A stretch of DNA of 64,000 nucleotides from Escherichia coli (GTDB lineage Bacteria; Pseudomonadota; Gammaproteobacteria; Enterobacterales; Enterobacteriaceae), in NCBI RefSeq assembly GCF_045037415.1, contig NZ_CP173438.1; one strand, 5' to 3'. Positions 18,001 to 24,000 of this stretch are shown here, piece by piece. Within the stretch, counting starts at the first letter, position 1. Each line of letters begins with the position of its first letter. A program made the position numbers.

Positions 18001-21000
18001 ATTGCCGCTCTGGTTGGGGTAAACGGTTCCGGAAAATCGACGTTGTTTAAAGCGATTATGGGATTTGTGCGTCTGACCAGCGGAAAGATATCTGTTCTGG
18101 GTATTCCCACGCGACAGGCGTTACAGAAAAACCTGGTTGCCTACGTCCCTCAGTCAGAAGATGTTGACTGGTCATTTCCTGTACTGGTGGAAGATGTGGT
18201 GATGATGGGCCGCTATGGGCATATGGGTATGTTGCGTATCGCCAAAAAGAGGGATCGTCAAATTGTCACCGATGCGCTGGAACGTGTCGATATGGTGAAT
18301 TTTCGCCATCGACAAATCGGCGAGCTTTCCGGTGGACAAAAGAAACGCGTCTTTCTGGCGAGAGCGATTGCACAGCAGGGTGATGTGATCCTGCTGGATG
18401 AACCTTTTACTGGCGTTGATGTGAAAACCGAAGCCAAAATCATCAGCCTGTTGAGGGAGTTACGCGCGGAAGGCAAAACGATGCTTGTCTCAACACACAA
18501 TCTCGGATCCGTCACGACATTTTGCGATTATACGGTCATGGTCAAAGGCACCGTCCTGGCAAGCGGGCCGACAGACACCACTTTTACAGCCGAGAACCTA
18601 GAGCTGGCTTTTAGCGGCGTACTGCGCCATGTCACACTTAACGGCTCGGAAGAAAGCATTATTACTGACGATGAACGCCCTTTTGTGGCTCATCGACCGT
18701 CAGCGGTGCAGAGGGAAGAAAGATGAACGTGCTACTGGAACCCTTCAGCTATGAATATATGCTCAATGCGATGTGGGTCTCGGCGATGGTCGGCGGTCTC
18801 TGCGCTTTCCTGTCATGCTATCTGATGCTAAAAGGCTGGTCGCTGATTGGCGATGCGTTGTCGCACTCTATTGTCCCGGGTGTTGCGGGGGCATATATGC
18901 TGGGGCTTCCGTTTTCTCTGGGAGCCTTCTTTTCCGGCGGACTGGCTGCGGGCAGCATGCTGTTTCTTAACCAACGCACCCGCTTAAAAGAAGATGCCAT
19001 CATCGGTCTGATCTTCTCGTCCTTTTTTGGCCTGGGGCTGTTTATGGTGTCATTGAACCCGACATCTGTGAACATTCAGACCATCGTCCTGGGCAATATT
19101 CTGGCAATCGATCCGGCGGATATCCTGCAACTCACTATCATTGGCATTCTCTCGATCATCGTGCTTTTTTTCAAATGGAAAGATCTTATGGTGACCTTTT
19201 TCGACGAGAATCACGCCCGTGCTATTGGATTGCATCCGGGCAGATTAAAACTCCTCTTCTTCACCCTGCTGTCGGTTTCGACCGTTGCGGCGCTGCAAAC
19301 GGTTGGTGCCTTTCTGGTGATCTGTCTGGTGGTGACTCCCGGTGCAACAGCATGGTTGTTAACCGATCGTTTTCCCCGCCTGCTCATGATTGCTGTAACT
19401 ATTGGCAGTGTAACCAGTTTCCTCGGCGCGTGGGTCAGTTACTTTCTGGACGGCGCGACAGGTGGAATCATCGTGGTGGCGCAGACACTGCTGTTTCTTT
19501 TAGCATTTGTCTTTGCGCCCACCCATGGGCTTTTGGCAAATCGTCGGCGTGCGCATAAGGCGCTGGAGGATCGCTCATGATGGCATTATTACTGGAGCCA
19601 CTGCAGTTCACCTTTATGAGTCACGCACTGCTGATTTCACTGGTAGTTTCCATACCCTGTGCGCTGCTGTCGGTCTTTCTGGTCCTGAAAGGTTGGGCAC
19701 TGATGGGTGACGCGATGAGTCATGCGGTTTTTCCTGGCATCGTGCTTGCCTGGATTCTGGGGTTACCTTTGGCTACAGGGGCATTCGTCGCCGGAGTATT
19801 CTGTGCGGTGGCGACGGGATACCTGAAAGACAACAGCCGAATCAAGCAAGATACAGTGATGGGGATTGTTTTTTCTGGCATGTTTGCCGCAGGTCTGATC
19901 TTGTATATTGCAGTCAAACCAGACGTACATCTTGACCATATTCTTTTCGGCGACATGCTCGGGATAACCATCGGCGATATAATCCAGACGATGATTATTG
20001 CCGGGCTGGTTACACTTGTTATTAGCGTAAAATGGCGGGATTTTTTGCTGTTCAGCTTTGATTATCAACAGGCGCAGGTAAGCGGTTTGCATACGAGATG
20101 GCTGCATTATGGGCTGCTGTGCATGGTCTCTCTGACCATTGTGGCGACGCTGAAAGCGGTAGGTATCATTCTCTCCATTTCTCTGCTCATTGCGCCTGGC
20201 GCCATTGCGGTACTCCTGACACAACGCTTTCATATTGCGCTCCTACTGGCGACTGGCATATCGGTAATAGTGTCAATGACTGGTGTCTGGTTGTCCTTTT
20301 TTATCGACAGCGCACCAGCTCCGACGATTGTCGTCTTATTCGCGGTTTTGTTCATCATGACGTTTGCCGTTACCAGCATCAACGCACGCAAAAAGGGAAA
20401 CTCCCATACACAGGATCTGTTATCACCCAATTAGCACAACATCCGAGGACAGCAACACCCGATACTTTTTCCTGGCTTCCAGCAACGGGGTTTCTTCCTC
20501 CGTTGCATATACAGCTCACCTTTTTTCACCCACGATTAACCAACAGCCAGACCAGCAGACACGCCACCACCGGCACAGCAAAATCCATCAGGCTTGCCAC
20601 ATCCCAAGCTCGCGGATCAAAACCGCCCCACCACGGCATATTCATTCGCTTGCCATGCCCGAACATTTCAATCCAGCGATATTCTGCCTGGGTATGTTCA
20701 CGCGCAATGAAGAACGTACAACCGGCTATCGCTCCGTAAGCCCAGTTTCCGGTAAAAAGACCAACCAGTATCTGCGCAGCCACAGCACAAAGTGCATGAA
20801 GTAAGGGGCTTATATCCATTATTTCCTCCTTTCAGCTCCATTCCCGAAGCGGTGTTTCCAGCTCCACGACATAATCAGAGAATACAGAAACATCAAACAA
20901 GTCATCAAGAATGCGAATGTTGACAAAATAACCGTCATTCCGGACACAGACAGGTTCTCCCTCTTCTGTTACCCCTGTTTCTGTGTAGGTGAAACCAATT

Positions 21001-24000
21001 TCATCGACTAACAGTTTATTCTGGAGGTCTTCATCCTCCTCCCAGTCAAGAGATGACAGGAAGGATTTAAACTCTCTGTTACCAGGAAATTTCAAAGTTA
21101 AATCTTTCATACTGCCTCCTTGATTTGCCTGTCATTTAATTCTTTAAACCAGACTCTGAAATTTCTGATGTGTCCAAACAAATGACGCGTTCCTGCTGCG
21201 GTCTGCCCACCAAACCGGTACGATGTTGCTGTAACTCCAAATATTTTACCATTAAGGTTTGTTGTATAATTACCATTGCATATTGCATTTACTGATAAAT
21301 CAGATTTAGCTCTCACACCCACAATGAACCTTTCTCCATCTGAGGCAATTTGTGGCTGAACCATTCCTACGTTGGCGCTTATCTTTCCTGTTGCAACAAA
21401 CCCCAGCGATAAATAATTATCATCAATACTGTGCCCTCCAACATCAAATATCCTTGGCGCAACATTGGGCGGTGTACTCCAGTTCCTGCTTACTTCGCAC
21501 AATACCGTAAAAGGCCGTGTTGACAGGTTATTCTGCGATGGGATAGTAACTACATCACTTGCGCGTGTTGTTGGCATTGTAGTTACAATAAATGACGATG
21601 CCGTATTGCCCAGTTCAATTTGCGGCGTCGTCATGGTTAATGTTGAGTCATCATAGAATGTCTCATTACTTATTTTATTTGTCATATAAAAAGCACAGTT
21701 AACGGTATCAATGTCCGTATTAGCTGTATAAGTGGCCTCATAGTAGGTCCACTCGCCCTGTTGTTCAGCTTTGGCTGTTATAAGGGATGTATTACCGCTT
21801 ACTGTTGCGATCCGGGTATCCAGATCAAGATAAGAGTCAGCAGAGAAGGTATCTGTTCCACCAATAATAACTGAAACTCTTAACCTGCATCGTGCTTTAG
21901 CGCCTTTAACCCGGCACGAAAAAGTGAAACATTCACCACTTGCCAGCGGGAATCTGTCTGCTGCAACCACACCATGCACAGTATAGCCACCTGTTGTTCC
22001 CACTATACTTTCCGTGGGTGTCACCGTGGCATAATTGAACCCCTGTTTATCAGTGCCAAATGTTTTATTCAGTGCGGAATGAACAGTCCATGAGTCTGGT
22101 TTATTTGAGTTCCTCAGATAATTTGTCCTCTGTCCTTCAATCAATAAGCCATCGCGCTCAAATCGCGGTTCGTCAACTTCAGCAAGCTTGAGTTGGCCGG
22201 ACTTATTAATATACGTTGCTGTTGAAGCACGTTTAAACTTAACAATCTTGTCGCCTGGCATTGTTATTTCATCGTCACCAATAACTATCTTTTTATAAGA
22301 TGGCGAAAAACCCGTAATCATATCCAGTGAATCGTTAAACGGTATCCACACATCAGGCAGCGGCGGCACTATATTCGCACAGGGCTCTGCAGTCACTTCC
22401 GCTGCGGCTTCTGCGCGGTCTGCCGCCTTTTCAGCTCGTGTCGCTGCCGACAGAGCCTCATCCTTTTTCTGCCCGGCCTTTGTTGCGTCTGCTGCGGCCT
22501 CCCGCGCTTTTGTGGTGGCGACTCCGGCATTTTCAGCGGCTGACTCTGCATTACGGCGGGAAGCCTCTTCACTGTCTGCGGAGGCTTCTTCTGACGCACG
22601 GGCATTTGTCTCTGAACGTTCTGCCGCTGTTGCTGCGTTTTGTGCGGCTGTTTTTGAAGAAGCTGCCGCTTTCGCGCTGTTACCTGCATTCGTCTCTGAT
22701 GTTTTCGCCGCGTTCCTGGACGATGCCGCTGCTGTTTCTGATTTCTTTGCTGCCGCTGCGCTCTGAGAGGCGGCTTCAGCGTTGCGTGCCGCCTCTTCCA
22801 CCATCTTTTCAAAACGATACAGTGCCTCCGGACAAACATCATCTTCTGTTGCAGCGCCCAGAAAATCATTCAATGTCCCCGGCTTAGAATCCTCATACAC
22901 GGTGATGGTCCCGGCATGTGAAGGCGGAAAACCTTCAACCAGCAGGGCGACGCTGTACTGGCCATACTCAACATCCATGCTGTAACGTCCGGCTTCATCC
23001 GGATTTTCTGAGGCCACCGTGTTCACCACAACTGTGGTGCTGTTACGTTTTGCTTTGAGCTGAATGGTGCAGTTCTGTATCGGTTTTCCTGCACCGTCTT
23101 TCAGCACACCTGAAATCTGTACTGCCATATTCACTCCACAAATAAAAAAGGCACCATTTCTGGTGCCCGAATTTGGGTTTTAAAATTCAACTGATACTGA
23201 TGCCGGCTGTTGATTTCTTCATCACGACAACAAGAAGGTCGCTGATACTGGTCGTTGGCGTCCAGTTATTTGCACCATATGAAGAAACATTGAAAGTCAG
23301 GGTGACATGGCCGTGTCCGGCAGGCATATCAATGACTGATGAAAATACCCTGCTGACATCCGTCGCGGGTTGCTGAAAGATTTCCTGTCCGTTCTTCAGC
23401 ACCTGCAGCTTACAGGTTGAATACCAGTATGACTGTTGGTTGTTGCTGTTGAAGTTTTCATGCTTACCACCGCGAAACAGAACGGGGGGGACGACTATCT
23501 GACGGTCAAAAGCCTGGTCATCGTACACAGTGACCGTTATTGTACCGCTGGCATAACTGCCATTTCTCGGAAAGGCTTTTCCCACCGTTTTGACAATATC
23601 ACCTTCAATCTGGTTAGCTGACAGTTTTCCCAGAATCCGACAGTTCTGGTTAATCGTGACATTATTGAGCGTCCCGGAGTTCGCATTCACGTTACCGCTG
23701 ATATCCGCATTTCTCGCAGAAAGTCGACCATCAGGTGTCAGTGAAAACGTTGGGGGATTGCCACCGCTGGTAATGGTGGGAGCCGTCAGATATTTCAGGA
23801 ACACTTCGTTCATGAATATCTGATCGCCCTGCCCAACAAACATCGGCTTTGTATTGCCATTCGCAGGATTAATCATCGCAATCCTGTCCGCCGCCAGCAG
23901 CACCTGACTCTGCATACCGTCAGGGGTATTCTCAATACCGGCACCAATACCCGCGATATAAAGGCGTCCGTCCTGCATCTGCTGCAGCTTCACAGCCCAC

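Follow-up and report, generated by a model that had tools for sequence, protein, structure and literature searches.

Gene content of the locus

The window analysed in this study is a stretch of 64,000 nucleotides (nt) of Escherichia coli (RefSeq assembly GCF_045037415.1, contig NZ_CP173438.1), and its subject is a pair of small genes at the end of the tail-fibre cluster of a lambdoid prophage. On the minus strand, a lambda-J-like gene is followed by the gene of a side tail fibre of 675 amino acids (aa), an open reading frame (ORF) of 92 aa and an ORF of 97 aa, after which the convergent sitABCD genes are reached (Table 1). The ATG of the 92-aa gene overlaps the TGA of the fibre gene (ATGA), GGAGG lies upstream, and the product is acidic (pI 4.05, with 22 D+E against 8 K+R). 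The 97-aa gene starts 12 nt past the 92-aa stop, behind AGGAGG. Its product is hydrophobic, carries the motif PWWGGFD at residues 62-68, and is predicted by AlphaFold2 to form three helices (residues 4-23, 26-53 and 74-96; pLDDT 95.3). An earlier note, made from the sequence alone, had described this pair of ORFs, the overlapping start, the acidic and the membrane product, and the absence of the lambda tail-fibre assembly gene tfa from the slot. All of this was recovered, and neither small protein matched the Tfa family PF02413 in Pfam. Searches against Pfam, NCBIfam and PADLOC profiles gave no homology to Tfa-type chaperones or to housekeeping proteins; only PHROG families of unassigned function were matched.

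We propose that the lectin-tipped fibre and the 92-aa protein form one module, in which the small protein would serve as an accessory or connector subunit of the fibre end, and that the 97-aa protein is an independent membrane factor directed at the host. The probability of this combined explanation is put at about 0.45.

Both small ORFs are genuine genes and not chance reading frames, because they have full-length PHROG matches, confident AlphaFold2 models and signs of purifying selection. The 92-aa protein matched phrog_1361 (E 1.6e-39, residues 1-91 against profile positions 1-91 of 92), was modelled as a small alpha/beta domain (pLDDT 90.7), and its gene showed pairwise dN/dS of 0.17-0.43. 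The 97-aa protein matched phrog_1443 (E 2.4e-58, residues 1-96 against profile positions 1-96 of 97), and its gene showed pairwise dN/dS of 0.09-0.18. Against PDB sequence profiles, nothing under E 0.4 was found for either protein.

As objects, the two genes are not new: they are widespread and already catalogued as hypothetical, which is also their RefSeq annotation here. The stretch is 100% identical to lambda-like phage records (the Lambda_ev series and 1H12) and 99.8% identical to PhiR47_2. The counterparts in phage 21 are CPT_21_22, CPT_21_23 and CPT_21_24, annotated as "side tail fiber", "hypothetical protein" and "putative membrane protein". Positions 20400-21300, a query that reaches into the end of sitD on one side and that of the fibre gene on the other, matched 2,111 of 5,426 complete E. 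coli genomes (about 40%) at up to seven places per genome, with a query coverage of at least 80% in 1,109 of them. The comparative picture given below, namely a lectin-tipped fibre with an obligatory partner, a missing distal fibre and a pan-proteobacterial membrane family, was not found in the literature searched.

Table 1. Position and strand of the features discussed, in coordinates of the 64,000-nt window
Feature	Position	Strand	Basis
Lambda-J-like gene	23187-26669	-	ORF map of the window
Terminator-like hairpin between gene J and the fibre gene	23149..23168	-	Scan; phage 21 terminator annotated at the same place
Side tail fibre, 675 aa	21107..23134	-	PF08400, NCBIfam GTA_spike_fiber, phrog_1419
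GGAGG ribosome-binding site of the 92-aa gene, within the 3' end of the fibre gene	21114..21118	-	Sequence; phage 21 equivalent annotated
Acidic, cytoplasmic protein of 92 aa (phrog_1361), constant partner of the fibre type	20832..21110	-	ORF and full-length PHROG match
AGGAGG ribosome-binding site of the 97-aa gene, within the 12 nt that separate the two small genes	20824..20829	-	Sequence; phage 21 equivalent annotated
Three-helix membrane protein of 97 aa (phrog_1443), last gene of the cluster	20526..20819	-	ORF and full-length PHROG match, AlphaFold2
sitABCD operon, complete iron/manganese ABC transporter, convergent to the tail genes and adjoining the fibre locus	16985-20434	+
Lysis cassette, complete	44038-44972
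Protein of 126 aa with TonB C-terminal domain, between terminase and lysis regions	42906-43286	-
Inverse autotransporter / IS66 / esterase region	51744-55652 (-), 49182-51598 (-), 48124-49155 (+)

The side tail fibre

The side tail fibre consists of unlike parts. The N-terminal 130 residues or so are lambda-Stf-like (PF08400, E 2.8e-67 in Pfam), and the resemblance to lambda Stf is confined to this part. An Ala-rich coiled coil follows at about residues 110-250, and then a concanavalin/galectin-like lectin domain at about residues 250-675, which is different from that of lambda. These C-terminal residues, about 425 in number, matched phrog_1419 (E 2e-294) and the NCBIfam family GTA_spike_fiber, "GTA head spike fiber" (E 7.5e-18); a weak match to the carbohydrate-binding module CBM_4_9 was also obtained in Pfam. 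The homologous domain of Gp22 in the T5-like phage IrisVonRoten has been called "galectin-like" and protrudes from the fibre end (BASEL 2025, PMC11990801). The GC content is 43.0% in the C-terminal part of the gene and 55.2% in the N-terminal part. A side tail fibre module of a non-lambda kind, whose distal end is made up of the fibre tip and the two small genes, appears to have been grafted onto a lambda-like Stf N-terminus.

Compared with the side tail fibre of phage 21, the window fibre is 64% identical overall and about 44% identical in the C-terminal domain. Within this domain, a variable middle is flanked by a conserved base and by conserved last residues (about 30). The intramolecular chaperone domain Peptidase_S74 (PF13884) was not found in the window fibre by Pfam. 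The fibre end is of the lectin-like ConA/galectin type, and it is served by neither a Tfa protein nor an intramolecular chaperone. Long ORFs of 84-158 aa were also seen on both strands at 22393-22887, and these were rejected as shadow-ORF artefacts of the repetitive GC-rich codons in the coiled-coil part.

The 92-aa protein accompanies the fibre type

Homologues of the 92-aa protein were present in 144 phage records, including lytic T1-like, Dhillonvirus and T5-like phages, and they always stood directly after the lateral fibre gene. The fibre domain was immediately upstream of the homologue in 82 of the 84 fetched loci. Since the fibre domain itself was found in 218 records, some fibres seemed to be partnerless. 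With the family profile, however, an ORF of 88-110 aa was recovered at the same position in JeffSchatz (rV5-like myovirus), AKFV33 (T5-like), PhiR55_1 and KarlJaspers (hmmsearch E 3e-14 to 8e-40); these four divergent homologues had escaped tblastn. A homologue was therefore present behind all examined fibres with this C-terminal type, in lytic siphoviruses and myoviruses (T1-, T5- and rV5-like) as well as in prophages. The GC content of the 92-aa gene (41.9%) is near that of the fibre C-terminal part, in contrast to the fibre N-terminal part and the 97-aa gene, and this shared low GC suggests that fibre tip and 92-aa gene move as one cassette. We consider that the 92-aa protein is probably an obligatory partner of the fibre end, which would travel with it in this cassette among lytic and temperate siphoviruses and myoviruses.

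The genes around it occur in three architectures. In the first, which is that of the window and phage 21, the fibre gene is followed by the 92-aa and the 97-aa gene. In the second, a distal fibre gene (229-234 or 346 aa) lies between the two small genes. In the third, seen in lytic phages, the fibre and 92-aa genes are followed by a distal fibre (231 aa, or a T-shaped one of about 575 aa) and the 97-aa gene is missing. The distal proteins all open with the peptide M-x-T-x-T-V-I-P-x-D-I-T-x-L-K and carry a Peptidase_S74 chaperone domain at the C-terminus. When the 92-aa proteins were clustered at 70% identity, the clusters mapped exactly one-to-one onto the module architecture.

This raises the question of whether the 92-aa gene is a mere adaptor for a distal fibre, left in the window as a functionless remnant after the distal fibre was deleted. 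The three-gene form does prevail, with 63 of the 79 closest IMG/VR loci against 12 for the two-gene form, and no distal fibre gene was found elsewhere in the window. The selection data speak against such decay. In 54 two-gene modules with 18 distinct 92-aa alleles, pN/pS was 0.35-0.43 and no frameshifts were present. Between the two major 92-aa types of these modules, pN was 0.25 and pS was 0.86, and the two deeply diverged two-gene lineages have both retained the gene. In addition, phages 21 and PhiR47_2, which form plaques, have the two-gene form. We regard the remnant explanation as very unlikely. JeffSchatz also has the fibre and the small protein and is without a distal fibre bearing the conserved N-terminal peptide. 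Its gene content, together with the selection in the 54 modules that have no distal fibre, indicates that the primary partner of the 92-aa protein is the proximal fibre.

Connector or chaperone

The earlier note had suggested that the 92-aa protein could be a non-canonical fibre chaperone. The link to the fibre on which this was built is strongly supported by the homologue after every examined fibre of the type; what did not hold is the idea of a Tfa-like chaperone matched to tip specificity, as the protein is uncoupled from the variable region of the tip. The identity of 92-aa proteins correlated with that of the conserved fibre base (rho 0.71) and of the N-terminal 30 residues of the distal fibre (rho 0.71), and less with the variable middle (rho 0.42). 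In 69 locus pairs, the 92-aa proteins were more than 85% identical while the fibre variable regions were less than 60% identical, and the reverse was seen in 31 pairs. Between the window and phage 21, the 92-aa proteins are about 93% identical, against 44% for the fibre C-terminal domain. Because the divergence follows the domain base and the distal N-terminus rather than the variable region, the 92-aa protein is unlike specificity-matched chaperones such as Tfa and fits a junction subunit; a folding chaperone is no more likely than a structural connector or cap.

On these comparisons, we tentatively favour a fibre-end accessory or connector subunit, a reading to which we give slightly less than even odds. 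The 92-aa protein would bind the conserved base of the fibre C-terminal domain and complete or cap the fibre end. In the three-gene version, it would offer a docking site for the distal fibre, with its conserved N-terminal peptide and its Peptidase_S74 domain. The RefSeq label of the IrisVonRoten homologue is "tail fiber protein".

A possible but less probable alternative is a transient, non-structural assembly chaperone, which aids the trimerisation or folding of the lectin-tipped C-terminal region and then leaves. Such help would be needed by a fibre without Tfa or an intramolecular chaperone, and indeed neither PF13884 nor PF02413 was present, whereas the distal fibres bring their own chaperone domain. 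The strict co-occurrence with the fibre type and the stop-codon overlap are in keeping with this alternative, as are the selection on the 92-aa gene where no distal fibre exists and its presence in JeffSchatz. A small, acidic and soluble character is also typical of many phage chaperones. However, the protein does not co-vary with the variable region of the domain that it would have to fold, unlike Tfa or gp38-type partners, and it shows no likeness in sequence or fold to known chaperones. From the co-occurrence, the selection and the pattern of co-variation, we rank the accessory or connector subunit first, then the chaperone, and the remnant as least likely.

Several points weigh against the connector. 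It cannot be the sole role of the 92-aa protein, because JeffSchatz has no distal fibre with the peptide. The correlations with neighbouring segments may merely mirror physical linkage or clonal descent; as regards connector against chaperone, the distance correlations and the clustering are suggestive and confounded by linkage. Furthermore, neither the 92-aa nor the 97-aa protein is described in the full-text literature searched, in which the BASEL, DT57C and LL5 papers treat the fibres and not the small gene.

Comparison with known fibre partners

In lambda Stf-Tfa, Mu S-U and T4 gp37-gp38 (PF02413, Caudo_TAP), as in our module, a small gene directly follows that of the fibre, shares translational coupling with it and always goes along when the tip is exchanged between phages. 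The likeness ends there. The 92-aa protein has no sequence or fold similarity to the Tfa type, is half the size of Tfa and does not co-vary with the receptor-binding part. No match was found to PF02413 at E ≤ 1 in Pfam, nor to any family in NCBIfam or PADLOC, and the fold is unlike that of solved Tfa-type chaperones and shows no similarity to gp38 or any solved protein. The fibre tip of the window is a lectin-like jelly-roll, in contrast to the Tfa-dependent tip of Stf-Tfa type pairs.

A closer parallel is found in T5-like phages. Gp22 of IrisVonRoten is homologous to the window fibre (43% over the C-terminal domain) and Gp23 to the 92-aa protein (47%). The branched or two-segment lateral fibres of these phages (LtfA/LtfB of DT57C; Gp22 with the T-shaped Gp24 of IrisVonRoten) follow the same logic of a proximal fibre plus a distal fibre with an intramolecular chaperone (PMC11990801, PMC4728585). 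The window has no distal fibre, unlike DT57C and IrisVonRoten. In the published descriptions of T5-like fibres, no function is assigned to the product of the small gene that separates the two fibre genes; for DT57C, LtfB is reported to be attached through LtfA, and a small connector is not described. By every test applied, the 92-aa protein is a member of neither the Stf-Tfa pairs nor the T5-like fibre junctions.

DNA of this stretch is also found in phages in common use, such as phage 21 and isolates of the BASEL collection, as well as in therapeutic candidates of the T5- and T1-like kinds. Should the 92-aa protein prove to be a connector or chaperone, it would be a required part when O-antigen-targeting, lectin-tipped fibres are engineered or swapped. 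Accessory genes beside receptor-binding genes are expected, and the finding is unsurprising in kind; it defines two tractable families.

The 97-aa protein and its family

The 97-aa protein behaves differently from its neighbours. The GC content of its gene is 52.7%, unlike that of the adjoining genes, and the protein is 100% identical between phages whose 92-aa proteins differ and whose fibres are only 44% identical. Homologues were found in 75 phage records. A profile search of 1.84 billion representatives gave a family of 533 representatives at 50% identity, and the best 150 of these 533 relatives were mostly stand-alone proteins of about 65-150 aa.

In members 30-57% identical to the window protein, H8, R40, E41, W72 and P83 were invariant, and G29, Q44 and E46 were nearly so. 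In the AlphaFold2 model, the hairpin of helices 1 and 2 has H8 and residues R40-E46 together at one of its ends, on one membrane face. Residues 40-73 are the richest in K+R (5.3 on average), which suggests that this segment faces the cytoplasm.

No match was obtained for the 97-aa protein in Pfam, NCBIfam or PADLOC, and Pfam was also blank for 50 diverse relatives. Neither the known superinfection-exclusion families (Imm, Sie, Cor and Llp) nor the PADLOC defence models were matched. In Pfam, GtrA (PF04138), Oac-type acyltransferases and holins were likewise without a match, and the gene sits at the fibre locus, apart from the lysis genes.

The 97-aa gene was present in 76 of the 84 fetched loci, after the 92-aa gene or after the distal fibre gene. 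None of the nine lytic phages examined that share the fibre module has it. The family closes the Stf module in lambdoid prophages, and its other positions are varied. A homologue stands after the tailspike gene and directly before int in the P22-like phage JEP4, after a Tfa-like tail-fibre assembly gene in the Halomonas myovirus phiHAP-1, after J and a small ORF in Comamonas, and after a 603-aa tailspike and fibre-like proteins on metagenomic contigs; most contigs of the distant metagenomic relatives are too short to inform on the context. One genome per species was then scanned (36 loci, 32 with a readable ORF). At least 15 of the 32 readable loci were behind tail or fibre genes, in Escherichia, Comamonas, Pantoea, Silvania, Acidovorax, Pigmentiphaga, a Sphingomonadales metagenome-assembled genome (MAG) and Chelativorans. 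The Pantoea homologues follow DUF4376 fibre-chaperone-type proteins, and that of Chelativorans follows a Laminin_G_3 protein. Overall, the family spans siphovirus, podovirus and myovirus prophages of Alpha-, Beta- and Gammaproteobacteria.

At least eight loci were chromosomal and had no phage genes around them. In several Aeromonas species, the homologue occupies a syntenic site between pirin and RIO1 genes (L086, 6001-6309; also L185, L188, L190 and L191). In L086, the only one of these loci with called genes, pirin lies upstream and two lipid A acyltransferase genes are nearby; the RIO1 kinase gene lies downstream in the Aeromonas set. Other chromosomal copies are beside LysR or GNAT genes in Leclercia and beside a DNA ligase gene in a MAG of an unclassified member of the Pseudomonadota.

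Two further observations were made on the family. In the Escherichia phage HC6 (47.7 kb), an unannotated partial homologue (L099, 3001-3162; residues 41-94, 43% identity) follows an 859-aa hypothetical protein and precedes ssb; it may be a remnant or a short form in a possibly lytic phage. In 23 of the 79 IMG/VR loci (L100-L178), the end of the viral contig is no more than 10 nt away from the 97-aa stop, which indicates that prophage-boundary callers often set the prophage end right after this gene.

Expression of the small genes

No promoter-like site was found just upstream of either small gene, and the scanned region held four such sites against 4.5 expected by chance, in a scan that scores consensus matches only and is weak evidence. 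The fibre, 92-aa and 97-aa genes all lie behind the terminator-like hairpin that follows gene J. Relatives whose distal fibre has 346 aa carry a GC-rich hairpin with a T-run (GGGGCCGAGCGCCCCGTTTT; L064 6816-6842, L079 7333-7359) after the stop of that fibre gene and ahead of the 97-aa start. Because it directly precedes the start, the 97-aa gene in these relatives would be read only by terminator-resistant transcription. These features suggest that the small genes are transcribed as part of the antiterminated late transcript.

Possible role of the 97-aa protein

The other half of the earlier note was a membrane factor such as a superinfection-exclusion protein, and a host-directed factor of this kind would fit the comparative pattern: the family occurs mainly in temperate phages, beside receptor-binding proteins of any type, and in chromosomal copies. 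This indifference to the receptor-binding type, the temperate bias and the stand-alone copies are better explained by a conserved target in the host than by a part in building the fibre. We propose that the 97-aa protein is an independent module, a putative three-helix inner-membrane protein made from the late tail transcript, and that it probably acts on the host envelope by exclusion or receptor masking. Its target would be a conserved envelope component and not the fibre, and it may lower the adsorption or entry of related phages or prevent the re-adsorption of progeny.

Some results count against this view. Late rather than lysogenic expression, as suggested above, weakens the case for exclusion expressed by the lysogen, and leaves room for receptor masking during lytic growth. 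Lytic phages would also gain from receptor masking, yet they are without the gene. In addition, lytic Aeromonas jumbo phages carry partial homologues away from the tail genes.

It is quite unlikely that the 97-aa protein instead serves the morphogenesis or release of the phage itself, as a maturation factor of receptor-binding proteins or as an accessory of lysis or its timing. Such a role would agree with the translational coupling to the late tail genes, seen as overlapping or closely spaced starts, and with the signs of an antiterminated late transcript, namely the lack of an upstream promoter-like site and the terminator-like hairpin in some relatives. However, lytic phages with the fibre, 92-aa and distal fibre genes build their fibres without it, and the family makes no difference between fibre, tailspike and Tfa-dependent fibre. 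The stand-alone copies of Aeromonas and Leclercia have no phage partner, and for a lysis function, the window has a complete lysis cassette elsewhere and the protein matched no holin family.

A conversion, lysogenic or lytic, of the surface glycan bound by these fibres and tailspikes is another explanation, in which the 97-aa protein is a small membrane enzyme, or an enzyme-like binder, acting on a lipid-linked envelope precursor such as an undecaprenyl-linked glycan or a lipopolysaccharide (LPS) intermediate. The invariant and nearly invariant residues on one membrane face of the model would suit an active site of this kind. The JEP4 homologue lies where P22 and Sf6 carry gtrABC and oac, between the tailspike gene and int. 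There is also a precedent in Gnarl1-3, small stand-alone phage proteins that alter the O-antigen, of which Gnarl3 is reported to bind the UDP-glucose enzyme GalU (PMC12373910). Nevertheless, the protein has no similarity to an enzyme family and is very small for an enzyme at 97 aa. Judged by the distribution of charges, the conserved segment would face the cytoplasm and be remote from those steps of O-antigen assembly that take place in the periplasm, and the high conservation across hosts with unrelated O-antigens speaks for a generic target. We therefore consider this explanation unlikely.

Gnarl1-3, D3 Iap and the epsilon15 polymerase inhibitor share with the 97-aa protein that they are small stand-alone accessory proteins, which could change the glycan that fibres or tailspikes recognise. 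They alter the O-antigen although they are not glycosyltransferases, and they set a precedent for seroconversion-like effects without large enzymes. The mechanism of Gnarl3 on GalU has no evident parallel in a polytopic membrane protein such as this one, and the small-protein sequences were not found among the accessory genes of the Gnarl screen. The O-antigen-converting phage Kapi1 was not among the phage matches listed for the 97-aa protein, and the candidate conversion genes of Kapi1 are described in other terms.

Known exclusion proteins offer a second comparison. Cor of phi80, N15 and T1 and Llp of T5 are small proteins encoded beside receptor-binding genes that block receptors; both are outer-membrane lipoproteins, each specific for one receptor. 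T4 Imm, P22 SieA and HK97 gp15 are small inner-membrane exclusion proteins. The 97-aa protein resembles these systems as a small envelope protein with a presumed host target, encoded at the end of a receptor-binding cluster and found mainly in temperate phages. It has no homology to any of them. Unlike Cor and Llp, the 97-aa family is predicted to be polytopic and located in the inner membrane, and is associated with many unrelated receptor-binding proteins in several proteobacterial classes.

For the family as a whole, we think it possible, though doubtful, that it forms a large undescribed group of three-helix inner-membrane effectors. With a conserved H/R-E/Q/E site, these would block or remodel a conserved step in the biogenesis of an envelope glycan or a receptor and so give generic exclusion or masking, and they would have been domesticated in Aeromonas and Leclercia. 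If the 97-aa protein does act in this generic way, it would be a widespread player in prophage-mediated phage resistance, independent of receptor type, and could explain host-range gaps in wild E. coli.

Other features of the window

The sitABCD genes also lie beside the fibre locus in phage 21 and in the Lambda_ev and 1H12 records, and this common arrangement indicates that the operon is phage-borne cargo at the end of the late region. The host flank at 9158-14642 carries the group ycgG, bluF (BLUF-EAL), bluR (MlrA-like MerR) and DUF1398, and minCDE-like genes are present at 3062-4608. Because these host genes flank the prophage, its fibre/sit end abuts the ycgG/bluF/bluR region of the chromosome. 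In the early/late regulatory region of the prophage, there is a 1302-aa inverse autotransporter of the intimin/invasin-like type (IAT_beta with Big_1/Invasin_D3 repeats), which adjoins IS66-family transposase genes and a predicted alpha/beta-hydrolase esterase of 343 aa.

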